IMG/VR virus record: IMGVR_UViG_3300012208_000004
Coordinates: 556-64,555 of that record
DNA from: a virus
Lineage: Duplodnaviria > Caudoviricetes
Reading direction: 5' to 3' (one strand)
DNA: 64,000 nucleotides
Part shown: one piece after another, positions 2,999-61,451 of the stretch
Layout: every line of letters starts with the position of its first letter
Position numbering within the stretch: position 1 is the first letter of the stretch
Program-made: the position numbers and the translations under genes
The notes under the pieces: model-generated
The model's input: the letters and a program-made list of their open reading frames with translations, nothing else
Databases searched by the model: none
Told to the model about the DNA's origin: nothing

Positions 2999-3255
2999 GT
3001 ATGAGAGTAAATGGTTATCAATGTGATGCATGTTGCACTGTGAAAAGTGGGGAGAATTCTTTAAAAGATTGGTTTGCTGTATATGATTTTAGAAAAGGTG
3101 TTGAAAGTGATGAACAGCATTTCTGCTCGCTGCATTGTTTGCATGAGTGGGTAGAGAAGCAAATCCCAGTAGTTGGTCAAGTTTTCCCTTCATTCCGTAA
3201 TTCTAAAACAGAAGAGGAAAAGCAAGAAGATCGTGAGTACTGGAGGGATAATTAA
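2995..3255 (+). CDS. Hypothetical Cys-rich (Zn-binding) protein
   Basis: CDAC and HFCSLHC motifs; TAATG coupling to portal. Confidence 0.55.
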   Translation: MSMRVNGYQCDACCTVKSGENSLKDWFAVYDFRKGVESDEQHFCSLHCLHEWVEKQIPVVGQVFPSFRNSKTEEEKQEDREYWRDN

Positions 3256-4481
3256 TGAACACACTCCAATCTCCACCTGAGACACAGCCAAAGTATAAAA
3301 TCACCGATGATGATAGGGCACGCGCTACACGTATCCAAGATGCATGGGATGCTTATGAGGATAATTTTGTAAATCATTTTAAAAAGATGCCCGATGAGCC
3401 TGACATGAATGTTTTAAGCAATAGAGTTATTGAAATAGTGAATGCAAGCAATGACTTTTTGTTTGCTAAAGAGTTACAAATAACTGTTCCTGAAGGGAGT
3501 CCCAAGGAAGCGCAAGCTTTCTTGGATGATACATTTGGAAGGAAAGAAACCCGCATTCCATTTCTACTCCGTCTAGGGCTCAACGGGTCTATGGCAGGGA
3601 GTGCGTTTATTCGTATTGTTCCAGGTCGCAAAAAAGGCAAGTTCAGACTTATTGAAGTCGATCCAAGTACTATCAACGTTAAAACAGCTCCACAGGACTG
3701 TCAGACGGTCCTCCTGTACTGCATTGAGTATTGTGAGGATGAAGAGGACGCAAGCGGTAAGCCGCAACGTGTGTACTATCGTGAAGAGATTTCGCGCATT
3801 GATCCAACTGGCAACCAGCCATTTACTTACGAAGACATGGATGCAGACGGCATAGATTCCGATGTTATATGGAGCATTCAGCATTGGACACAAATAGCGC
3901 AAGCTGGCATGGCACCGAAGAATGGAAACTGGGTACCAGCTGGGGAGCCTTATGATTGGCCCTATCCATTCAGTCCGATATTTTCGTGTCAAAATCTTCC
4001 AAGACCCAACAGTTTTTGGGGATACCCTGACGTGACCAAAGGGCTCATAGGGTTAAACGACTCACTGAACCTTGTGCAATCAGGTATCAATGTGGAACGT
4101 AAGATTAAACGAATGCTGTATGCACCTGGTACAGGTGAGGGTACGTTGCGCATGCAGTCGGGCACGATTATGCAGTTGCCTAATGCTGACCAGAAAATTG
4201 AAGCTGTACAAGTGGCAAGCGAAACTGCAAGTGACCTCACCTTTGCCGCTAACCTCCGAAGTGACATGGATGAACAGTCAAGCGTTCCAGGAGTCGCAAC
4301 CGGGCGTATCGATATTCTCCCTCGTGGTATTACTGGAATTGCAGTGGAGCTTTTGTATGGGCCACTCCTCAAGAAGACAGACAAGAAACGTTGTACCTAT
4401 GGTGAAATGATTATAGAAGTTTCAAAGGCGTTGTTAGTATTGAATAACATGAAAAGCAGTGTGAGTGAGGATGCAGCATGA
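3255..4481 (+). CDS. Portal protein (SPP1/Gp6-like), N-terminal part
   Basis: Position after TerL; N.V..IVN....FLF, NLP.PNSFWG.PD and TGIAVELLY.PL..K motifs; usual C-terminal segment missing. Confidence 0.85.
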   Translation: MNTLQSPPETQPKYKITDDDRARATRIQDAWDAYEDNFVNHFKKMPDEPDMNVLSNRVIEIVNASNDFLFAKELQITVPEGSPKEAQAFLDDTFGRKETRIPFLLRLGLNGSMAGSAFIRIVPGRKKGKFRLIEVDPSTINVKTAPQDCQTVLLYCIEYCEDEEDASGKPQRVYYREEISRIDPTGNQPFTYEDMDADGIDSDVIWSIQHWTQIAQAGMAPKNGNWVPAGEPYDWPYPFSPIFSCQNLPRPNSFWGYPDVTKGLIGLNDSLNLVQSGINVERKIKRMLYAPGTGEGTLRMQSGTIMQLPNADQKIEAVQVASETASDLTFAANLRSDMDEQSSVPGVATGRIDILPRGITGIAVELLYGPLLKKTDKKRCTYGEMIIEVSKALLVLNNMKSSVSEDAA

Positions 4482-4954: not shown

Positions 4955-5293
4955 ATGAGCACCGACATTGATATAACACTAGAGTGGCAAAGCCCACTTC
5001 CTGTAGATGACTTACAAACAGTACAGGCATATGTGTTGTTGAAAAGTCTTGGGATATCTAACACTTCGATAATGAGGAAACTCGGCTATGATCCAGATGA
5101 GGAAGCAGCATTGTCAGCGGCGGAAGATGCGCAAGCCCTTGCTAACAATCCACTCATGCAACAACAGGACGTGTTGCCAGATTCCATTCCAGGAGTAGCG
5201 CCACTACCAGGTCAACCACCAGCAGTCGCACCTGGTGCGCAACCATCCCCATTGCAAGGTGGAAGTCCACAAGGAGTACAGCAGAATGGATAA
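4955..5293 (+). CDS. Portal protein, C-terminal part
   Basis: DITLEWQSPLPVD...GISNTSIMRKLGYDPDEE resembles the C-terminal region of SPP1-like portals; Pro/Gln-rich tail; GGGAG SD. Confidence 0.75.
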   Translation: MSTDIDITLEWQSPLPVDDLQTVQAYVLLKSLGISNTSIMRKLGYDPDEEAALSAAEDAQALANNPLMQQQDVLPDSIPGVAPLPGQPPAVAPGAQPSPLQGGSPQGVQQNG

Positions 5294-5582
5294 AGAATAT
5301 AAAGGTGAAATACATATAAATGGTAAAATATTGCCTATAACAAGTTTTATCTTTGCCTTTAGTCCTCCTCCTGAACCACATCTTATGTACAACAGGCAAT
5401 TTTTACCAGCTAATCAAGTTCCAGAGTGTGAAACGTCATTATGTGAAGAAAAAGCAACGCAGGATTGTGTTTTGTGTCTTACTCCTATTTGCAATGGACA
5501 TGCAAGTATGGCGGTGAAAGAGCATATATGTCATGCGTGTAGACTTGCGACCTGGATATATGTGAATAGAGCGAAAGGATAG
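5286..5582 (+). CDS. Hypothetical Zn-finger protein
   Basis: Multiple CxxC/CxxH pairs. Confidence 0.55.
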   Translation: MDKEYKGEIHINGKILPITSFIFAFSPPPEPHLMYNRQFLPANQVPECETSLCEEKATQDCVLCLTPICNGHASMAVKEHICHACRLATWIYVNRAKG

Positions 5583-5585
5583 AGT

Positions 5586-5870
5586 ATGAGCAGTGAGCCA
5601 ATTTCACAAACAGCGTTTGACACGCTTCCTAAAGCTATTCGTAACTGGATAGCTGGAATTGGATGGAAGCGAGAGGACATAACAAGTTGCCATATCCGTT
5701 GTTGTAGACCTTTGATTTTTACTTTTACCAAAGGGCAAGAGAAACGTTTTGTGCGATTGAATGTGCTAGAAAATGGAGAATATGCTAAAAATGTCATTGA
5801 AGAAGATCAAGAAGCATTAGTTCAACATGTTACACAAGTAAATATTGATACAGCTAAGCATGGATTGTGA
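5586..5870 (+). CDS. Hypothetical protein
   Basis: ORF with SD, in operon. Confidence 0.5.
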   Translation: MSSEPISQTAFDTLPKAIRNWIAGIGWKREDITSCHIRCCRPLIFTFTKGQEKRFVRLNVLENGEYAKNVIEEDQEALVQHVTQVNIDTAKHGL

Positions 5871-5879
5871 AAGGAAAAT

Positions 5880-6248
5880 ATGTTTACAATTGGGCTACAT
5901 GCCACATCGATTTTAGCGTGGGGAATAGCCGTTCACCTGTTTTGTGATTGGTTACTTCAAAATGACTATATGGCTAAATATAAGGTTTCGCTCTTGCATC
6001 CAGCCGCTTGGATACATAGCGGAATCCACCTGCTAGGCTTGCTGTTTATCTTCCCCTGGTGGGCGGCTTTGCTCATCGCTATTATTCATCTTTTGATCGA
6101 TACACGCGTGCCTCTTGTGTGGTGGAGGAAGTTCTACAGGCAAACAACCGAGGGACCTGTAGCCATAGATGTTGCAATATGGGGTGATCAAGTTGCCCAT
6201 ATTACAGTACTTGCAATATTTGCATTAATTATTGGAGGAGTATCATAA
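5880..6248 (+). CDS. DUF3307-like membrane protein
   Basis: HLFCDWLLQ, H...H, HLLID and DQVAH motifs within hydrophobic helices. Confidence 0.7.
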   Translation: MFTIGLHATSILAWGIAVHLFCDWLLQNDYMAKYKVSLLHPAAWIHSGIHLLGLLFIFPWWAALLIAIIHLLIDTRVPLVWWRKFYRQTTEGPVAIDVAIWGDQVAHITVLAIFALIIGGVS

Positions 6249-6524
6249 ATGGCAATAGTTCCAGATTTTGCAAATCAACCGACATCATTTCAACCATCAA
6301 TGAACGCTGAAGTACAACCTAATAGCGTGCATTTCAAACTTCAAAAAGATCCATTTACAGCCGATACACTAATTGTTCCTGATGGTCTCATGATACAAGT
6401 GGTAACGTTGTGGTTACAAGCGCATCCACAAGAATCAATTGAAATTATGCGTGCACTTAAAAATAAGCAACGTAACGAACTTGATATTATTCGTACGGTT
6501 AATAGTACGAAGAATAGGAGTTGA
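6249..6524 (+). CDS. Hypothetical protein
   Basis: GGAGGAG SD, abuts upstream stop. Confidence 0.6.
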   Translation: MAIVPDFANQPTSFQPSMNAEVQPNSVHFKLQKDPFTADTLIVPDGLMIQVVTLWLQAHPQESIEIMRALKNKQRNELDIIRTVNSTKNRS

Positions 6525-6525
6525 C

Positions 6526-6660
6526 ATGGCAAAGAAACAAAAGTATGTGATGACGTACAAGATGAAAGATGGTAGCACAGCTCCGTCAGGAGGTGTTGTT
6601 AAGACAGATAGCAAGGGCAAACCCATAAAGCGTGATGATGCTAAAAAGAAAGGAAAGTGA
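6526..6660 (+). CDS. Small Lys-rich protein
   Basis: AGGAG SD then MAKKQK...KKKGK. Confidence 0.5.
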   Translation: MAKKQKYVMTYKMKDGSTAPSGGVVKTDSKGKPIKRDDAKKKGK

Positions 6661-6661
6661 C

Positions 6662-6841
6662 ATGGCAGGTAGCAAGCACCCGGGGTTCAAGAAAGCGGCA
6701 TCATCGATTGCAGCAAAGCAAGGAATCTCAAAAGGAGCGGCCAGTGCTATTCTTGCCTCTAGCACGCGAAAAGCTAGTCCAGCAGCTAAGCGGAAAAATC
6801 CTAATTTGAAGAATGTACCATCCAAAAAGAAAGGGAAATAA
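6662..6841 (+). CDS. Small basic Ala/Lys-rich protein (possible DNA-condensing virion protein)
   Basis: MAGSKHPGFKKAA...AILASSTRKASPAAKRKNPNL; no acidic residues. Confidence 0.6.
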   Translation: MAGSKHPGFKKAASSIAAKQGISKGAASAILASSTRKASPAAKRKNPNLKNVPSKKKGK

Positions 6842-6842
6842 C

Positions 6843-7094
6843 ATGACAAAAAATACAAGTAGTGATACTGATCCTCAGTTGCAAGCGGTGAAACCCGATG
6901 ATATAAAGCCTGAAACTGATCCTGTAGCAGTTCCAAGCTTTGCTGATAAGGTTGAAGATCTCATGAACCATGCTATCGAGCAATCCATTCCTGCTCCAAA
7001 TCAACCTGCTACCGAGCATCATCAAAAGTTTGCAGCATGGGCAAATGCGCTAGGCGATTTGTTACGTGAGGTAAAGCAGCATGCTAAATCCTGA
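6843..7094 (+). CDS. Hypothetical protein
   Basis: SD + ATG just after upstream stop. Confidence 0.5.
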   Translation: MTKNTSSDTDPQLQAVKPDDIKPETDPVAVPSFADKVEDLMNHAIEQSIPAPNQPATEHHQKFAAWANALGDLLREVKQHAKS

Positions 7095-7326
7095 GCAGTT
7101 ACAATCTCATGAAACAAGTCCATTCCCCGTATCTGGCATATGGTTGCGTCGTATAGGTGACGAAGTGCATGTGCTTTTTGAACATGATGGGCACTGGTAT
7201 ATGGGCATTAATGAATTTGTGGAAGGGAACTTTAGTCACATTATGGAACCTTTAGGCATGAGGGCACGGGTTGAAAGAAAACAATTTGATCCGGTAACAG
7301 AAAAAGAGGTTGTAAATGCCCAATGA
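7081..7326 (+). CDS. Hypothetical protein
   Basis: GAGG SD, overlapping operon. Confidence 0.55.
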   Translation: MLNPEQLQSHETSPFPVSGIWLRRIGDEVHVLFEHDGHWYMGINEFVEGNFSHIMEPLGMRARVERKQFDPVTEKEVVNAQ

Positions 7327-7543
7327 TGAACTTAAACCAAACAAAGTAGAGCGGCCTGACTGTCATCACATGCAAACGATCATGGCTCGTCCCTCTCTCA
7401 ATCTTTCAGACTATAGCCAGCGGCTTGTTCCTGAACTGCAAGAGGCAATCAAAGAGCCATGCGCGGAGTGCGCAAAGGAAAAAGCCGAATTTGCCAAGCA
7501 AAAGCTTGTGCAAGAAATGGATGAAAAAGCAGGAAAGAAATGA
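7316..7543 (+). CDS. Hypothetical protein
   Basis: GAGG SD, overlapping operon. Confidence 0.5.
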   Translation: MPNDELKPNKVERPDCHHMQTIMARPSLNLSDYSQRLVPELQEAIKEPCAECAKEKAEFAKQKLVQEMDEKAGKK

Positions 7544-7872
7544 GTGAGCAAAAAAGCCGCGCTAGGTTGCTTGTAGACCATCAAATGATGGATTATGCTC
7601 CATCTAAAATTGAGATGCCAAAGTATGGTCAAATTGTTTGGCATGTGATGGAAGTGCAGGGACTTTTTGACTTATTCAAATCGTTTCTTTTACTTCCTGC
7701 CCAATACGAGATTATTGGAGTGTATTTTGATGTAGCGCATGCAATGTGGACACTTCTTCTTGAAAGTGAGGATATTCCCTTGCCTGAAAAAGGAATGGAG
7801 CTTCCTCTTGCTGTATCAACATATTATTATGAAGATGGCAAGATAAGCATTCATGAACTGAAGTTTGTGTAA
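7540..7872 (+). CDS. Hypothetical protein
   Basis: ATGA coupling. Confidence 0.55.
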   Translation: MSEQKSRARLLVDHQMMDYAPSKIEMPKYGQIVWHVMEVQGLFDLFKSFLLLPAQYEIIGVYFDVAHAMWTLLLESEDIPLPEKGMELPLAVSTYYYEDGKISIHELKFV

Positions 7873-7882
7873 AGGAGAAACC

Positions 7883-8212
7883 ATGACAAAAGATGAATTG
7901 ATTGAGAAGTTGGCAGAAAAAGAGCATGCATCATGGGCACGGTGGATGGCCTATCTCTTCTCGAAGTGTGAGGATAATCCAGATGGCTCACTTACTATCC
8001 CGTCTGCTTACGTAACATCGCTACAATCACAGATAGATGCATCATATGCAGATCTATCAGAGCAGGAAAAGCAGTATGACAAGGATGAGGTAGCTCATAT
8101 CTTGCCCATCATTGAAAAGTACACAGATGAAAAGCTGCAAAATGCAGTTGTGAAAACAATAAGCCGCGGAGGATTAGTCAATCCTATTGGCAACCCCTTG
8201 CACGGTGATTAG
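7883..8212 (+). CDS. RyR-domain-like hypothetical protein
   Basis: LAEKEHASW...YADLSEQEKQYD pattern; AAGGAG SD. Confidence 0.55.
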   Translation: MTKDELIEKLAEKEHASWARWMAYLFSKCEDNPDGSLTIPSAYVTSLQSQIDASYADLSEQEKQYDKDEVAHILPIIEKYTDEKLQNAVVKTISRGGLVNPIGNPLHGD

Positions 8213-8266
8213 TATTGTGCATTTTGCAAAATGTCTTGACTTTTTGAGAAAGAAGGATTTATACTA

Positions 8267-8968
8267 ATGTCAGAACAAGAAACTCCACCAGCTCCCGCGA
8301 CGGGAACTCCTGGAACATTACCCGCGACGGGTACTCCGACTTCACAAGGTGCGACACCTGCGAAGCCAAGCGTTGAAGAGTTACAAGTACGTATTGCAGA
8401 ACTTGAAAGACATTCAACGAATAAAACTGAAGAAGCTTCACGCCATGGTAAAAATCTCTCTGAAGCTCAAAAGAAGCTTGCAGAATACGAAGAAAAAGAG
8501 AGATTAGCGCAAGAGGCAAATCTTTCTGAGATTGAAAAGTCAAAGAAAGTCGTTGAAGCAGAAAAAGCAGCAAGAGCACAGGCAGAGCAGCAAATTCAGC
8601 AATTAAAACAAGAACTTATATCGAAGATGGTGCAACTCATGGCGAAAGAAAAAGGCATTATTGATACAGAGCTTGCATCATTGGCTATTGCTGGAAAGCT
8701 TGAATTAGGGGACGATGGCATGCCAACTAATGTAGACAAAGCGCTTGACGATCTCATCAAGAATAAGCCATACCTTGCGCCTAAACCTGCTGAAACGACA
8801 CAAGAACAGCAAACAACACCTGCTCAAACTGCAAATAATCAAAGACCACCTGCAACACCTGCAATGAATCCAGGTCGGTCAAGTATCACCCAACAAACAA
8901 CATTGCAACCAGGGAAAAAAGTGACATTTAACGAGGCATATGGCCCTCGTCCTGGCAGAACTTCATAA
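8267..8968 (+). CDS. Head scaffolding protein
   Basis: Coiled-coil, Glu/Lys-rich, L...KPYL motif, directly upstream of capsid gene. Confidence 0.8.
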   Translation: MSEQETPPAPATGTPGTLPATGTPTSQGATPAKPSVEELQVRIAELERHSTNKTEEASRHGKNLSEAQKKLAEYEEKERLAQEANLSEIEKSKKVVEAEKAARAQAEQQIQQLKQELISKMVQLMAKEKGIIDTELASLAIAGKLELGDDGMPTNVDKALDDLIKNKPYLAPKPAETTQEQQTTPAQTANNQRPPATPAMNPGRSSITQQTTLQPGKKVTFNEAYGPRPGRTS

Positions 8969-9081
8969 ATTTTTTCATGAATACCTGCGATGGGTATAAG
9001 TGAAAGCCTGCGATAGGCACTCATTAACTTCAGGTAGCGCGATGCTCCCAGAAGCATACACCACTTGAAAATAATGGGAGC
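8293..9081 (+). promoter_or_regulatory. Two clusters of three GCGAY-pentaloop hairpins (scaffold 5' coding region and scaffold-capsid spacer)
   Basis: Stems at 8293-8305, 8319-8333, 8347-8359, 8981-8997, 9006-9018 and 9036-9046; different stems, same loop. Confidence 0.7.
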
Positions 9082-9089
9082 CTTTTTCT

Positions 9090-10109
9090 ATGGCAATTGA
9101 CTCCAATGCGTATAGTCTAGCAGACTACGCATTAAACTCTAATAATCCCATGGTGAGGGCAATATCATATTCCCTCATTGAAGCTGATAATATTCTCCAG
9201 GATATACCAATTCTGACGCAAGCAACTATGATTGCTAATGGTGTCAGGTTTGAAGGCAATCTTCCAACCGTCAATTGGTCCCCTCTGAATGCTGAAGGCG
9301 TGACGACAAAAGGTACACCTACTCCATATGCAGAGCAAGTTTTCGTTGTTCGTAACTACATAGATGTTGATCAGCTCTATGTAGAGGATGTAAACAGCAT
9401 TGTTGATCCACGTGCAGCTCAAACAGAAGCATGGATGAAAGCGTTTTCCTATGACATGAATGATCGTTTTTTCAACAATGATCACATCACAGGAAATGCA
9501 AATGCTCCGGTTGGTTTGAAGTACAGAATTAATAATGGTAGTCAGTTTGGGGTAAGACCCGAAAACATCATCAACAGTGGCGGATTAGATCTCACACAAG
9601 CAACCCTCATTACTCCAGCTACTCAGCAAAATGGTAACAAGCTTCTCGAATTCCTTGACCAACTCTTGTGGTCTGTGAACTCTCCAACGGGCGCGGGCGT
9701 CGTGCTTTACATGAATGAGGTAGCCCGTCGTCGTGTTGCATTTGCCATCAGAGCATTAGGCACTGGTGGTGGTTTTGATGTCTCAAAAGACCAATTTGAT
9801 CGCACAATTGAGATGTATAAAAATGCAGTGGTTAGAGATCCGGGTTATAAAGCGGATCAAACCACGAGGATTATCCCTGTTACTGAAGCCTCAGATGGAA
9901 CCGCAGGACCTTCTACTTACACCTCAATTTACGCTGTGAACTATAGTGCAGATCACATGCACGCATGGCAATTTAAGGAAATGCAAGCACGTGACCTTGG
10001 TCTTTTGAACAATGATGTAATTTATCGAACGAGCATCAATTGGGCGGTGGGCGTGATGAATAATAGTACGCGTAGTTTGGCTAGATTGTTCGGACTGAAG
10101 ATGTCCTAA
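9090..10109 (+). CDS. Major capsid protein
   Basis: 339 aa after scaffold; ILQDIP, LPTVNW..LN.EG and YRT.I.W.VG motifs of HK97-fold capsids. Confidence 0.85.
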   Translation: MAIDSNAYSLADYALNSNNPMVRAISYSLIEADNILQDIPILTQATMIANGVRFEGNLPTVNWSPLNAEGVTTKGTPTPYAEQVFVVRNYIDVDQLYVEDVNSIVDPRAAQTEAWMKAFSYDMNDRFFNNDHITGNANAPVGLKYRINNGSQFGVRPENIINSGGLDLTQATLITPATQQNGNKLLEFLDQLLWSVNSPTGAGVVLYMNEVARRRVAFAIRALGTGGGFDVSKDQFDRTIEMYKNAVVRDPGYKADQTTRIIPVTEASDGTAGPSTYTSIYAVNYSADHMHAWQFKEMQARDLGLLNNDVIYRTSINWAVGVMNNSTRSLARLFGLKMS

Positions 10110-10129
10110 TTGCCTGAAAGGAGAAAACA

Positions 10130-10525
10130 ATGCCATCAGATGCAAATGTTGCCTTACAGGCATCAGTAACAAAAACTGCAACCTTCAACGGTGCTGCATT
10201 AATACTTCCAGGTGGTACACCTCGTAGAGGGTTGAATGCCCGTATCATCTATTCCGCTGCTCAACAAGCATCTGGATCAGGAGTGTGGACTTTTTCCATT
10301 GACGTTTGTTACGACGGTGTACCTACTACGTGGAATGTCGATTTTGTTGCTCCACCTATCACGCTTACTGCTTCTGCTCAGTCAGGAGAAATCTTTATAC
10401 CATTCTCAATCAGTCCTACCAGTGTGGCAAATGGAACGCAAATCAGATTGACGGCTACGCTCTCTGGTAGTCCAACTACTCCAACTATCACGTATCGTGG
10501 GGATTTGGTAGCAGGACGACCATAG
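10130..10525 (+). CDS. Putative capsid decoration/minor structural protein
   Basis: Beta-rich, follows capsid gene, AGGAG SD. Confidence 0.5.
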   Translation: MPSDANVALQASVTKTATFNGAALILPGGTPRRGLNARIIYSAAQQASGSGVWTFSIDVCYDGVPTTWNVDFVAPPITLTASAQSGEIFIPFSISPTSVANGTQIRLTATLSGSPTTPTITYRGDLVAGRP

Positions 10526-15082: not shown

Positions 15083-17593
15083 TTGCTTCTAGCCCAAATG
15101 GTTGTCGAATACATTGCAGATACGAGCAAGCTCGTTAGTAGCGTGGCAAATGTCAAGAACGCTGCTAATGAGGGGGCGGAATCTTTGCGCAATATGGCAA
15201 CGGCGGGCGCGGCTGTAGCAACGGCGGCTCTCATTGGGGTAGGTGTAGCCTCAACCAAGATGGCAGCCGACTTTCAACAAGGCATGACCAGACTTGTAAC
15301 GGGCGCGGGTGATGTTACTGACAATATGGCAATGATGAGTAAGAGCGTTTTAGCAACATCTGTTGCAACTGGTGTTTTGGCTACTGGTACAGATGGCTTG
15401 GTTGCTGCTATGTATCCTATCATTTCATCGGGTCAACGCGGAGCTGAAGCCCTTGACACTCTCTCAGTGGCCGCAAAAGGTGCTCAGATTGAACAAGCAG
15501 GTGTGGTAGAAGTAGCAAATACGCTATCTGGCGTTATGACGAACTATGGGACAAAAAATTTTACTGCTACACAATACATGAATGGGCTAATTGCTGCTGT
15601 AAAACAAGGTAAAATCACTCTTCAAGACCTTGCGATCGCGATGGGTCCTGTTGATCCAATTGCTCAACAATTAGGTATTTCTTTCAATGATATGGCAGCT
15701 GCCATGACAACGCAAACCAACGCTATGATACCTGCTGATCGAGCAGCTACGGGTTTGCGCTTTATGATGATGGCACTTGAAAATCCTACAAGTAAAGCTA
15801 AAGATGCCATGAAGTCAATGGGACTGAGCAGTATTGATGTTGCCAATGAGATGAAAATCAGCCTGCCAGGCGCATTGAATATGATTTATGATGCTGCAAA
15901 AAACGCAGGTCCAGAGGGCAGTGTACCGTTTAGTCGGGCGGTTGCTGATATGGTAGGGGGAATACGGTCCCTGTCAACATTTTCAGCATTGACAGGAGAA
16001 CACATGAAAGATTTTACTAAAAACTCAGCAGGTGTTCTTACTGCCATGCAGCAAAATAAAAATGCCGTGGTTGGTTGGGATGTAGTACAGGGTAATTTTA
16101 ATATCAAAATGGATCAAGCAAAAGCTACTCTTGCATCTCTTGCTATTTCAATTGGAACCGCTCTTTTGCCCGTCCTTGGCAAGGCTGTTGATGCATTCAA
16201 TTCACCTGCTTTCCAGCAATTTGCAACAACAGTAGCCGGTGTTTTGACATCTGCCTTGCTTGGCTTAATCAATGGGATATCAACCGTTGTGGGATGGGTC
16301 ACTCAGCTTGTGACCTACTTCCAACATAACCAAGCGGCGGCTATGGCTCTTGCGGTGGGCGCGGCAATCCTAGCAGGTGCTATCGGAGGTGCTTTAGTTG
16401 TAGCGTTTGCTATGGCCACGGCGGCGGCGGCAACTACTGCCATAGCATTTCTGTCAGTTGCATGGCCTGTGATTGCAATTGTAGCGGCTATAGCAGGGTT
16501 GGTGGTAGGTATTATTCTGCTCTATCAGCATTTTCAACCTGTACGAACAGTAGTAGATGCGGTAGGAAAAGTATTTCAACAGGTATGGAGTGTTCTTGTT
16601 GCAAATTTTATGCCAGCTTGGGCAAAGTTAGTAGCAGCATTTCAAGAGGCGATGCCTGCTATTCAATTAATTGGTGAAATATTGCTAGGAGTGCTTGTTG
16701 TGGCAATCGGCATTGTTATAGCGGTAGTCGTGGCGTTAGCAATGGGAATAGCAGGTGCTATAGGTGGAATTGTTCAAATATTTACTGGTTTTGTGCAGAT
16801 TGTAACAGGGGTATTTAATGTTATCGGCGGATTGGTAATGTTTTTTGTGGATTTGTTCACAGGGCATTTTGACAAGCTTGGAAGTGATTTAGGCAGAATA
16901 TGGCAAGGCATTATTCAAATATTTCAAGGTGCGTGGAATGTGATAGCAGGTGTATTTAATGCAGCAGTTGGTCTTGTAGGTGGTATAGTTGTTGGGTTTA
17001 TACAAGGTATTATTGGATTTTTCACAGGATTGTGGGATGCACTTGTAGGTCATTCTATCATTCCTGATATGGTAAATGGGATTGTGACATGGTTTGAGCA
17101 GCTTCCAGGTAGAGCTGGCGCGGCTATTCAGTCAATGATCACAAATGTTCTAAATCTCTTAAACGGGCTTGTGACAAGCGCTATGAATGCAGGTTCAAAT
17201 ATCGTCAAGGGTATAGCCACAGGTATAACAAATGCAATAGGAGCAGTAGGCAACGCGATAAGTACAGTTACCAGCTTTATTTCTGCCCACCTCCCTCATT
17301 CACCTGCTAAGATGGGTCCTCTGATGGATTTAGAAAACCAAGGCATGGAGATATCCAACCAGATATCTAAGGGCATGATAAACGGCGTACCACTCATCTC
17401 ATCTGCCATGAATAACCTAGCCAAGCCTGTAACGGTAGGATTGAAGGGAGTCGCAAGTGCTAGTGGCGTATCCCCCTTGCAAGGTGGTACTCAGGACAAT
17501 AGCATACATGTCTACATTGATGGCAAAGAAGTTACTGGGACAGTTATGAAGCGTGTACAGCGTGAATTGAGAGGGCATGGTCTAAAGAAATGA
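15083..17593 (+). CDS. Tape measure protein
   Basis: 836 aa, Ala/Gly-rich helical, TP901-type core, Trp/Phe-periodic repeats, hydrophobic segments. Confidence 0.92.
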   Translation: MLLAQMVVEYIADTSKLVSSVANVKNAANEGAESLRNMATAGAAVATAALIGVGVASTKMAADFQQGMTRLVTGAGDVTDNMAMMSKSVLATSVATGVLATGTDGLVAAMYPIISSGQRGAEALDTLSVAAKGAQIEQAGVVEVANTLSGVMTNYGTKNFTATQYMNGLIAAVKQGKITLQDLAIAMGPVDPIAQQLGISFNDMAAAMTTQTNAMIPADRAATGLRFMMMALENPTSKAKDAMKSMGLSSIDVANEMKISLPGALNMIYDAAKNAGPEGSVPFSRAVADMVGGIRSLSTFSALTGEHMKDFTKNSAGVLTAMQQNKNAVVGWDVVQGNFNIKMDQAKATLASLAISIGTALLPVLGKAVDAFNSPAFQQFATTVAGVLTSALLGLINGISTVVGWVTQLVTYFQHNQAAAMALAVGAAILAGAIGGALVVAFAMATAAAATTAIAFLSVAWPVIAIVAAIAGLVVGIILLYQHFQPVRTVVDAVGKVFQQVWSVLVANFMPAWAKLVAAFQEAMPAIQLIGEILLGVLVVAIGIVIAVVVALAMGIAGAIGGIVQIFTGFVQIVTGVFNVIGGLVMFFVDLFTGHFDKLGSDLGRIWQGIIQIFQGAWNVIAGVFNAAVGLVGGIVVGFIQGIIGFFTGLWDALVGHSIIPDMVNGIVTWFEQLPGRAGAAIQSMITNVLNLLNGLVTSAMNAGSNIVKGIATGITNAIGAVGNAISTVTSFISAHLPHSPAKMGPLMDLENQGMEISNQISKGMINGVPLISSAMNNLAKPVTVGLKGVASASGVSPLQGGTQDNSIHVYIDGKEVTGTVMKRVQRELRGHGLKK

Positions 17594-31453: not shown

Positions 31454-32350
31454 ATGCAGTTGGTTATCAGCTATCATGAGGTTAGACTCATGCAAGAAAC
31501 AGGTGAAACACTTGTTATTCACATACCGTACGATGCAGATTTTATAAAGTTATGGTTGCATGGAAAGAGCGATAATACTCAAACGGCATATCTATTAGAT
31601 ATCCATAGATTATATGATTTAATTGGTAAATCTTTGCGTGAATTAACGCTTGACGATTTCCAAGGTTTTACTGATAATCTTTATCATTTAAAGCGCTCTT
31701 CGCGTGCTCGTATTATGGCTAGTGTTAAAAGTGCTTTATCATTTGGCCTAAAGATAGGATATCTACAAGTAAATGTAGGATCTGCTGTAGAACTGCCCAA
31801 ACTGGAAAACAAACTAGCTGAACGGATACTTAGTGAGCAACAGATAGCAAAAATGTTTGCGCTGGAGAATAACCCGCGTAACCATGCTATTTTGATACTG
31901 CTCTATCGGGCAGGATTAAGAGTATCAGAATTGTGTGATCTGACATGGCGTAATCTGCAAGAACGAGATGAAGCTGGTCAAATAGCCGTGTTTGGGAAGG
32001 GCAAGAAAACAAGGCATGTGTTACTTGATCCTGCTACTTGGCAAGAGGTTACAAATCTGAAGACTGAGAAAGCTGGTCCTGATGATTATGTGTTTCAGTC
32101 TAGAAAGGGCAAGTCTCGACTAGATGAGAGCGCTATCCATCGGATTGTAGCTAGTGCTGCAAAGCGGGCGGGAATTAATGATAAGGTTTCGCCTCACTGG
32201 ATGAGGCATGCCCACGCTACCCATGCCCTAGAAAGGGGCGCTCCAATAACCCTAGTACAGGACACGCTAGGGCACAAATCCATGGAGACAACAGCTAAAT
32301 ACACTCACGTCCGACCTAATGCCAGTAGCTCTCAATATTTGGGAATTTAG
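31454..32350 (+). CDS. XerC/D-like tyrosine recombinase
   Basis: GLRVSE, GKGKK, HWMRH, LGH...T.KY. Confidence 0.93.
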   Translation: MQLVISYHEVRLMQETGETLVIHIPYDADFIKLWLHGKSDNTQTAYLLDIHRLYDLIGKSLRELTLDDFQGFTDNLYHLKRSSRARIMASVKSALSFGLKIGYLQVNVGSAVELPKLENKLAERILSEQQIAKMFALENNPRNHAILILLYRAGLRVSELCDLTWRNLQERDEAGQIAVFGKGKKTRHVLLDPATWQEVTNLKTEKAGPDDYVFQSRKGKSRLDESAIHRIVASAAKRAGINDKVSPHWMRHAHATHALERGAPITLVQDTLGHKSMETTAKYTHVRPNASSSQYLGI

Positions 32351-60350: not shown

Positions 60351-61451
60351 ATGGCAAAGAATGTCAGGAAGATAAAAAAGCGTGAGGAGTCAGATGGTTT
60401 CTTAGTCCAGGAGGTCATTCAAGAATATTTAGTATCTCCTCACGTCAAAAATCTTAGTTCTCGTACTCAGGATGAATATCAACAGGAGTTAGGCGTCTTT
60501 TCTGATTGGTGTAAATGCCGTCAGATTGTCAATGAGAAGGGCAAGAGAACGGCTGTATTTGGTGAAGGTCTTATGCTTCACCAGATTGATCAATATAGCA
60601 TTCAGCTCTTCTGTGAGCATCTTCAGGCTACCCACAAGCCGACAAAGAAAAGCCGATCTGAGATATCCAGTTACACGCTGGCTGGGTATGTCCGTGTGAT
60701 TAAATCTTTCCTCAACTGGTGTCTGCTTGATCCTCAATATGGAAATTACACAAGCTCGGCTGTTATCCAGCGAATTGAAAATCCGAAAGTGATAGAGACT
60801 ATCATCGAAACCTTCTCTCCTGAGCAGATCCAGGCTTTATTTAAAGCGTGCGAGAAAGAAGAAAGCGAACATCTCCAGCTACGCGATAAAGCTATCCTTG
60901 CTATCCTGCTCGATTGTGGATTACGCGCGACTGAATGTATCACGCTAACCATAGGAAATGTGTCATTAGATACAAAAGATGCATACGTTCGTGTTTTAGG
61001 CAAAGGCAATAAGTGGGGAGAAGTTGGACTTGGGGAGCAAGCACGTAAATATGTGCAGAAGTATATTCGCGTGTTTCGCATTCCAACAATAGAATACGCG
61101 GTACAACAAAAGCATAAAAACCTATCAGATCGTCAATGCAAACAAATAAGCTTAGAGGTTGTACAGTCGTCTCTGGTGTTTGTGAATAGGTATGGAGAGC
61201 AGTTAACAAAATCAGGACTTTGGAGAATTATCACGCGTTTGTCAGATTGGGCAAGGATTGAAGGTGTACGGTGCTCACCTCACACATTTCGTCATACGTA
61301 CGCGAAAATGTTTATGCAGAATGGAGGTGATATTTACACGCTTTCAAAGCTCCTTAGACACAATTCAATTAAAACAACCGAAGACTATCTTAAATCTCTC
61401 CAGCAAAGTGAAGCAAGGAAAGGGGCCAAGTCAGTACTGGATAATTTGTAG
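60351..61451 (+). CDS. Tyrosine integrase
   Basis: GLRATE, GKGNK, HTFRH, LRH...TTEDY; next to tRNA-derived att core. Confidence 0.92.
   Translation: MAKNVRKIKKREESDGFLVQEVIQEYLVSPHVKNLSSRTQDEYQQELGVFSDWCKCRQIVNEKGKRTAVFGEGLMLHQIDQYSIQLFCEHLQATHKPTKKSRSEISSYTLAGYVRVIKSFLNWCLLDPQYGNYTSSAVIQRIENPKVIETIIETFSPEQIQALFKACEKEESEHLQLRDKAILAILLDCGLRATECITLTIGNVSLDTKDAYVRVLGKGNKWGEVGLGEQARKYVQKYIRVFRIPTIEYAVQQKHKNLSDRQCKQISLEVVQSSLVFVNRYGEQLTKSGLWRIITRLSDWARIEGVRCSPHTFRHTYAKMFMQNGGDIYTLSKLLRHNSIKTTEDYLKSLQQSEARKGAKSVLDNL

Follow-up and report, generated by a model that had tools for sequence, protein, structure and literature searches.

In-frame hairpins with a constant loop behind a phage scaffold start codon, and their counterparts in a capsid leader predicted to mask its Shine-Dalgarno sequence

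Why should one five-base loop, on stems of differing sequence, recur three times just inside the gene for a phage scaffolding protein and three times more in the leader of the major capsid gene that follows? The locus is in a 64-kb stretch with 43% G+C from a virus record (IMG/VR, IMGVR_UViG_3300012208_000004), and 'the window' below means the whole of that stretch, 64,000 nucleotides (nt). The first part of the answer is that the scaffold hairpins are selected at the nucleotide level and are not due to chance, the element under purifying selection being a G+C-rich stem of 3–6 base pairs (bp), sometimes longer, closed by a G-N-G-A-Y pentaloop. What such loops might be for, and whether the leader hairpins bear on access to the Shine-Dalgarno (SD) sequence of the capsid gene, is a matter of graded confidence. 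The two genes and the six hairpins, with energies of the predicted structures, are:

8267–8968, + strand: scaffolding protein gene, 233 amino acids (aa), N-terminus rich in Pro/Ala/Thr/Gly (PF06810 and phrog_194)
8284–8314, + strand: hairpin 1, core TCCC-GCGAC-GGGA (8293–8305) plus an outer stem, loop 8297–8301 in codons 11–12, −11.6 kcal/mol
8319–8333, + strand: hairpin 2, TACCC-GCGAC-GGGTA, loop 8324–8328, −6.6 kcal/mol
8347–8359, + strand: hairpin 3, AGGT-GCGAC-ACCT, loop 8351–8355, −3.8 kcal/mol
8974–9004, + strand: hairpin 4, core ATACCT-GCGAT-GGGTAT (8981–8997) plus an outer stem, loop 8987–8991, −10.5 kcal/mol, equalled by 0/200 shuffles
9006–9018, + strand: hairpin 5, GCCT-GCGAT-AGGC, loop 9010–9014, invariant in 7/7 leaders, its 3′ arm doubling as part of the anti-SD strand
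9028–9054, + strand: hairpin 6 in its long imperfect form, CUUCAGGUAGC-GCGAU-GCUCCCAGAAG, from the comparative fold, loop 9039–9043, −7.9 kcal/mol
9090–10109, + strand: major capsid protein gene, 339 aa (PF20911 GP7, 2.7e-11; phrog_212, 6.1e-36)

The scaffold assignment combines a PF06810 match at E=1.3e-6, which is under the curated cutoff, with phrog_194 (head scaffolding protein). All six hairpins are where a preliminary description of this DNA had placed them, three with GCGAC and three with GCGAT loops, and the scaffold–capsid spacer has the 121 nt (8969–9089) claimed for it. For the GCGAC loops ViennaRNA adds a closing G-C pair, so that they are drawn as CGA triloops. As a short core of three pairs, AGC-GCGAT-GCT at 9036–9046, hairpin 6 is not stable alone (−0.8 kcal/mol, with 63/200 shuffles equally good). 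A scan of the whole window for GCGAY hairpins, requiring at least 4 stem pairs and admitting G-U, gives six on the + strand, five of them within 8293–9018, and one on the − strand. As mononucleotide shuffles give 1.94 ± 1.35 per strand with a maximum of 6, it is the clustering rather than the count that is unusual.

Selection on the hairpins behind the scaffold start codon

Are comparable hairpins to be found in relatives? Capsid searches yielded 11 IMG/VR and 21 metagenome loci, with capsid identities of 50–95% over matched segments, and an alignment query yielded 80 further IMG/VR loci with identity down to 39% (relatives are referred to below by L and a number). Counts are of non-redundant loci that contain the scaffold start: 57 for the enrichment count and 47 for later analyses, which excluded duplicates, scaffolds cut short by a contig end (L003, L004, L015, L022) and the remotest loci, L096–L120. 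In six loci the scaffold start was shifted manually to a downstream ATG. The hairpins are present in the uncultured soil phage of the window and in dozens of its relatives. The initial 130 nt of the scaffold genes contain 92 GCGAY sites, 50 of which are flanked by stems of at least 3 pairs and 41 by stems of at least 4; elsewhere in the 57 loci at least 3 flanking pairs accompany 32/568 sites on the + strand and 19/376 on the − strand.

For covariation every in-frame GNGAY site between nt 15 and 125 was taken, paired or unpaired, which gave 98 distinct sites from 47 scaffold genes. Their stem cells pair in 63.6% of cases vs 43.3% in shuffles, and 133 cells vs 61 are altered on both sides, excesses that 0/500 shuffles reach. 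The covariation score, 0.415 vs 0.152, is likewise reached by 0/500 shuffles, and all slid registers score lower. Watson-Crick pairing next to the loop stands at 79–84% vs a background of 23–24%. At 57 of the 98 sites there are at least 3 contiguous pairs, and these carry 17 different 4-nt arms. The proposal in the preliminary description that a constant loop on varying stems points to selection on structure is borne out in relatives for both clusters, and the covariation in homologues that it had looked to is found, here and in hairpin 4 of the leader, where 5/10 pairs are altered on both sides. Where hairpin 1 lies, the stems of some relatives are 7 and 13 bp long.

Could the array nevertheless merely follow from a repeated Pro-Ala-Thr-Gly peptide, or from chance? 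Codons of the form CCN...GGN, for Pro and Gly, are self-complementary, hairpins 1 and 2 lie in a PATGTP repeat, and the overall folding energy of the region is not unusual. However, the GCGAY loop is kept with eight different peptides (PATG, GATP, GAMP, DAMS, TATV, SATL, VATT and PAIG) and also in non-coding DNA. Synonymous resampling of the window peptide gives three GCGAY hairpins in 0/5000 trials, the mean being 0.08. Alanine before Thr, Ile or Met is encoded by GCG in 76/100 instances in scaffold codons 1–45 (76%) vs 110/414 (27%) in the remaining scaffold codons and the capsid genes, and the third base of the Thr codon follows the base with which it pairs. An origin in the peptide, or in chance, is on this evidence hardly credible. 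The constraint acts on nucleotides rather than on protein, and we have here a clear case of RNA structure constraining protein sequence. The hairpins, at about +30, +57 and +84, are all in frame 0 from the scaffold ATG; as their phase is always the same, this stretch is translated, with the RNA element shaping its peptide.

Another feature that abuts the start codon has to be reckoned with:

8236–8265, + strand: sigma70-type promoter-like site TTGACT-18 nt-TATACT, its −10 ending 1 nt before the scaffold ATG

The scaffold SD, GAAGGA (8251–8256), sits within the spacer of this site. A start about 7 nt past the −10, at codon 2–3, would on sequence grounds yield an RNA without the scaffold AUG whose 5′ end is close to the hairpins. 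Might the hairpins then serve that transcript, as a nut/put-like antitermination element, a 5′ stabiliser, or a sponge for protein, on an RNA carrying the capsid and later genes and unable to encode scaffold? The promoter pattern has six occurrences in the window vs 0.47 expected, the other five having ordinary leaders of 26–91 nt, and in 33/47 relatives (L005, L049, L064 and L085 among them) a canonical TTGACN-17/18-TAYACT has its −10 ending at most 2 nt from the ATG. The three hairpins would be about 20–90 nt from the 5′ end, and short G+C-rich stems with purine-containing pentaloops resemble boxB. Yet the constant frame from the ATG shows a translated region, and in the high-GC relatives L083, L094 and L100 the promoter is absent while frame, spacing and distance from the ATG are kept, so that the hairpins appear to be tied to the start codon and not to that transcription start. 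Neither a boxA-like element nor an arginine-rich N-like protein was found, and the loops end in C or U and not in the A of the GNRNA boxB family as that family is set out in the consulted part of PMC9830547. A role on such a transcript is distinctly unlikely.

Just upstream of the −35 there are palindromes, in the window at 8190–8235 and at the same place in L005, L007, L053, L076, L017 and L063. Where the upstream gene ends there is CCCCTTGCAAGGGG; L076 has GAGCACTTTGCAAAGTGCTC, and L063 two copies of TGAGTACTCA. Such palindromes could be terminators or operator sites.

How constant is the loop itself? At the 57 paired in-frame sites it is GCGAC in 39, GTGAC in 7, GCGAT in 6, GAGAC in 4 and GTGAT in 1; GCGAA or GTGAA is found in five relatives (L053, L072/L073/L075, L076, L078). 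In other scaffold lineages there are first-type variants, GTGAC or GAGAC, and also a second loop type in the same in-frame architecture: CTGGC, CAGGC, CCGGC or CTTGC, and CAGGT or CAGAT. On a capsid tree of 45 loci (two of the 47 were left out as their capsid open reading frame, ORF, is of <300 aa) 28 are type I (GNGAY), 12 type II (CNGRY), four weak and one has none. The types are clustered yet interspersed on that tree, needing 7 and 6 changes, so loop type follows the scaffold gene, not the capsid gene, which fits a self-contained module. The original observation is confirmed, and extends to a family-wide hairpin code of two types.

Arrays of the C-N-G-G-Y or CAGAT kind are seen in the scaffold 5′ regions of L054, L057, L058, L060, L080, L089, L090, L028, L087 and L100, where they encode PLAG, TQAV, PQAG or GQMP repeats; taken with the closing C, the loops are CCNGG. 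A separate consequence of a GCGAT loop followed by a 3′ arm that starts with G is an AUG at the loop–stem junction, as at 8987–8992 and 9039–9044 of the window. Such junction AUGs also occur in the scaffold 5′ ends of L051, L061, L068, L050, L016, L069, L072 and L078, and in several relatives they are in frame (GAMP, DAMS).

On which nucleic acid does selection act? Hairpins in single-stranded or extruded DNA might function in replication priming, in recombination at a module boundary, in packaging, or as a hairpin-type promoter. The region is where a mosaic segment gives way to the conserved head module, and in the coding copies A-C is as frequent as G-U, as transitions on either arm of a palindrome would give. 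Against this, the non-coding hairpins (window, L004/L016, L007, L022 and L083) have G-U pairs and no A-C, which indicates the sense strand and hence most simply RNA. The loops are also all in one orientation, that of the mRNA-sense strand; position is fixed with respect to start codon and SD, one copy overlapping the anti-SD strand; and none is near terminase or replication genes. Action as DNA is very unlikely.

The capsid leader and its Shine-Dalgarno sequence

Seven distinct leaders are of the window's type: those of the window itself, L001, L004, L005, L007, L022 and L053. Their RNAalifold consensus recovers hairpins 4, 5 and the long form of hairpin 6. The GCGAY of hairpin 4 is kept in 7/7. 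A 49-nt core that runs from hairpin 5 through hairpin 6 is 88–100% identical among six of the leader phages (all but L053); their capsid genes, compared for five of the six, are 69–74% identical. The folds predicted for the sequences one by one differ from that consensus. As MAFFT misaligns the indel-bearing 3′ strand of the helix that covers the SD, it is on these individual folds that the helix was judged. Hairpin 4 forms in all seven, with a closing-pair probability of 0.95 in the ensemble of the window leader; downstream of it the window leader is predicted to fold as follows:

9016–9026, + strand: anti-SD strand GGC-A-CUCAUUA, made up of the 3′ arm of hairpin 5 and a linker, pairing with 9072–9082 in the predicted fold
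9072–9082, + strand: SD strand UAAUGGG-A-GCC, with the SD GGGAG at 9076–9080, 9 nt before the ATG at 9090
9029–9069, + strand: inner long-range helix of the masked fold, UUCAGGU (9029–9035) with ACUUGAA (9063–9069)
9042–9057, + strand: alternative hairpin AUGCU-CCCAGA-AGCAU, part of the masked fold, which excludes hairpin 6

The masking helix encloses both the 9029–9035/9063–9069 helix and the 9042–9057 hairpin. In the window ensemble the pair 9021–9077 has a probability of 0.997, and in 7/7 leaders the minimum-energy fold hides the capsid SD, whose Gs are unpaired with a probability of about 0. The helix exists in three versions, CUCAUUA:UAAUGGG in five leaders, UUCCAUU:AAUGGGA in L022 and GCUCCUCAA:UUGAUGGAGC in L053, both strands having changed in the latter two. 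The predicted folds, then, have the SD paired by default by a helix that is conserved through changes on both of its strands.

The predicted masked fold and hairpins 5 plus 6 are mutually exclusive; the free-ensemble probability of hairpin 5 is 0.005 and that of the long form of hairpin 6, about 0. The need to serve two folds would, if the model is right, explain the invariance of the 49-nt core. In its idea of a fold that hides the SD and excludes GCGAY hairpins the preliminary description stands, for hairpins 5 and 6 and in 7/7 leaders; it had the wrong strand, the one that pairs with the SD being 9016–9026 and not GCTCCCA. The latter (9044–9050, inside the long form of hairpin 6) is, as was pointed out, exactly complementary to TGGGAGC (9075–9081). 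As the main masking element it has to be given up, since enforcing its helix gives −33.0 kcal/mol vs −42.9 for the masked fold, a penalty of about 10 kcal/mol, its ensemble probability is about 0, and it is missing from L053. Selection on structure is supported, and so, in the predicted folds, is a switch that involves the capsid SD.

Would such a switch need anything beyond the RNA? Structure might do its work with no specific binder: the scaffold hairpins tuning the loading of ribosomes onto the scaffold message and the first steps of elongation, and hairpins 5 and 6, forming first as transcription proceeds, delaying the masking of the SD and so acting as a timer for capsid translation. Being local, these hairpins would already be folded by the time the SD strand is transcribed, and the masked fold is the equilibrium state. 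In addition, since leaders of a second kind mask the SD without such a hairpin, masking needs no GCGAY motif. What is then left unexplained is the constancy of G-N-G-A-Y, non-coding hairpin 4 included, across capsid identities of 56–84%, G+C contents of 44–67% and complete replacement of stems, and also the match of the loop between two clusters within a genome. An explanation by structure alone is unlikely.

The second kind of leader (...TTGTATCTCGT...GGATGATAGGAG) occurs at L003:577–682, L008:2917–3025, L009:2135–2253 and L021:1407–1525. It is unrelated to that of the window and folds into one long hairpin whose inner stem covaries; there too the capsid SD is masked.

A scan of genome contigs with a 19-nt pattern from the leader core gave two matches, L039 and L040. 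The L039 leader, identical to that of L004/L016, is in a 46.5-kb contig labelled as a metagenome-assembled genome of Patescibacteria; this is probably a phage contig that was binned there, and hence no evidence for the host. The L040 match was set aside as unrelated and due to chance.

A candidate reader of the loops

If one reader served both clusters, they would be expected to share their loop type within each genome, and this is so in two separate lineages. The second is that of the distant relative L083, with 67% G+C and 56% capsid identity, where GAGAC occurs three times behind the scaffold ATG, and a 205-nt spacer unrelated to that of the window has GAGAT twice and GTGAT once. The reading to which we give about an even chance is that the hairpins are operator sites, in sense-strand mRNA, for one loop-specific trans-acting factor, the most economical candidate for which is free scaffold protein, and that the SD of the capsid leader is masked by default. 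The P22 precedent, and the fact that loop type travels with the scaffold gene, are what make the scaffold protein a candidate. We infer the binding of the factor, its identity and the direction of each effect. The three sites on the scaffold message, at about +25 to +95 after the AUG, would be just past the footprint of an initiating ribosome, and their occupancy by the factor would lower translation or stability of that message. In the capsid leader, pairing of 9016–9026 with 9072–9082 and of 9029–9035 with 9063–9069 would mask the SD until the factor, by holding hairpins 5 and 6, freed it and so turned on capsid translation.

Several considerations weigh against operator sites read by one factor. 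Some concern the comparative evidence: the sampled sequences are related and several rows come from the same genes, the hairpin alignment combines paralogous with orthologous sites, hairpin 5, which never varies, is not itself supported by covariation, and only a single compensatory pair supports hairpin 6. The total folding energy of the scaffold 5′ region is ordinary (z = −1.0), 27% of synonymous resamples folding equally well. Among the coding hairpins A-C mismatches inside the stem occur at 31 sites, most of them GGNAGC-GCGAC-GCCNCC, which encodes GSATPP, and are as frequent as G-U, with 21 sites; the strand test is consequently decisive only for the few non-coding copies. Others concern the switch. 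With hairpins 4, 5 and 6 enforced the window leader is at −32.5 kcal/mol, and holding them costs about 10.4 kcal/mol relative to the minimum-energy fold. Even so the 7-bp CUCAUUA:UAAUGGG persists, the Gs of the SD having a probability of only 0.03–0.11 of being unpaired, and across relatives the opening obtained by enforcing the short hairpins alone is partial and uneven. The fold model alone does not open the capsid SD. Many relatives with scaffold hairpins have the other leader, type 2, with no GCGAY hairpin. Lastly, no binding factor was identified among arginine-rich ORFs or upstream genes: a scan of 457 window ORFs for arginine-rich N-like proteins, with at least 7 Arg in 20 residues, returned only two antisense artefacts.

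A co-conserved upstream gene was considered as the source of the binder and ruled out, the genes upstream of the scaffold gene being mosaic and not co-conserved.

A bolder extension of the single-factor reading is possible, though we hold it doubtful. The scaffold gene would be a self-contained autoregulatory cassette, its first 30 codons a hairpin array read by the scaffold protein, with at least two loop 'dialects', G-N-G-A-Y and C-N-G-G-Y, that move with the gene, and the code would have been recruited into a riboswitch-like capsid leader in the lineage of the window and, independently, in that of L083. Were this so, an RNA code would dictate the N-terminal peptide of the scaffold and not the reverse, and surplus free scaffold would stop its own synthesis and turn on that of capsid, so holding the ratio of the head proteins.

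What kind of phage carries this arrangement? Other head and tail genes of the window are:

77–2461: terminase
3255–4481: portal
15083–17593: tape-measure protein

The window also encodes a major tail protein, an endolysin, helicases, primases, methyltransferases and, in one phage genome, two tyrosine integrases (31454–32350 and 60351–61451). On account of its tail, integrase and other genes it comes from a temperate, long-tailed (siphovirus-like) phage of at least 64 kb. The sequencing runs listed are all of soil-metagenome DNA, none of RNA; two of them may be the source of the window. Within the terminase region the match to the large subunit is confined to a 275-aa ORF at 858–1685 (phrog_7579), after which comes an overlapping ORF of 262 aa with no family assigned (1673–2461); the pair, 858–2461, could be a split or unusual terminase. 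Between portal and scaffold a 3.3-kb block of small ORFs, 4955–8212, is mosaic across relatives and holds two very basic small ORFs (6439–6660 and 6632–6841) and one, 7865–8212, with a weak match to the RyR domain.

Comparison with known systems

A search of the 64-kb window against Rfam release 15 gave no match at the gathering score, and for 8150–9200, on either strand and at E up to 10, six chance-level matches far under their thresholds, e.g., mir-553 at 20.8 vs 82 bits; the Rfam comparison foreseen in the preliminary description thus yielded no family. The open-access literature searched has no account of such hairpins in a scaffold gene. GenBank phages searched by DNA with 8000–10200 gave no match, and by protein search their closest capsids, from cultured phages, are only 26–29% identical. 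In two of these, Streptomyces phage Rowa and Gordonia phage Ewald, the 5′ end of the scaffold gene is without an array of hairpins with the same loop. We have, then, a candidate new RNA motif, absent from Rfam and so far found only in uncultured soil phages.

Which known elements does it most recall? The boxB element is present once per early operon, in untranslated RNA and together with boxA. Its loops form the GNRNA family with a closing A, according to the part of PMC9830547 consulted. The present hairpins are like the boxB of lambda and P22 in having a short G+C-rich stem and a five-base purine-containing loop that differs by phage lineage, GNGA being of GNRA type. They are unlike it in that the fifth loop base is C or U, and A in a few copies only, which places them outside GNRNA, and in coming three to an array, in frame, within a late gene. 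Reading by eye around both clusters for the boxA consensus revealed nothing like it.

Arrays of small hairpins are otherwise familiar from CsrA/RsmA, whose sites have GGA in a hairpin loop, and from ANTAR proteins, with two hairpins whose hexaloops have A1 and G4. What is shared with these is several small hairpins with conserved loop positions and free stems, one copy competing with a helix that controls expression. The type I loops, GCGAY, GTGAC and GAGAC, are without the GGA of CsrA/RsmA sites and, unlike the hexaloops of ANTAR targets, are of five bases with G at 1 and 3 and A at 4. No CsrA or ANTAR gene turned up, though no search was aimed at them.

In MS2 and PP7 the coat-protein operator is a single hairpin that contains the replicase start codon. 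The likeness is that here too a structural protein could repress translation through a hairpin recognised by its loop; the differences are that these are arrays, one following a start codon and the other preceding a second one, and that the phage is a DNA phage.

How the ratio of scaffold to capsid is controlled in tailed phages is poorly understood. Autoregulation by the scaffolding protein of phage P22 was reportedly described in 1985, by Casjens and Adams and by Wyckoff and Casjens, and we know of no definition of the RNA operator or target through which it acts. In the part of a recent preprint that was consulted (bioRxiv 10.1101/2022.12.13.520362) the output of the P22 scaffold gene is set after transcription, and its 5′, or N-terminal, part is implicated. 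In that limited sense the present case resembles P22, as again it is the scaffold gene, and its 5′ part, that is involved. It differs in that the phage of the window, siphovirus-like and temperate, is unrelated, and in that regulation itself is known here only as a prediction while the cis elements are visible. The hairpin family supplies such elements in an explicit and comparatively supported form: the in-frame trio that follows the scaffold AUG, its counterpart with matching loops in a capsid leader that masks its SD in the predicted fold, and natural variants of loop and leader. This makes the question of how the ratio is controlled directly testable.

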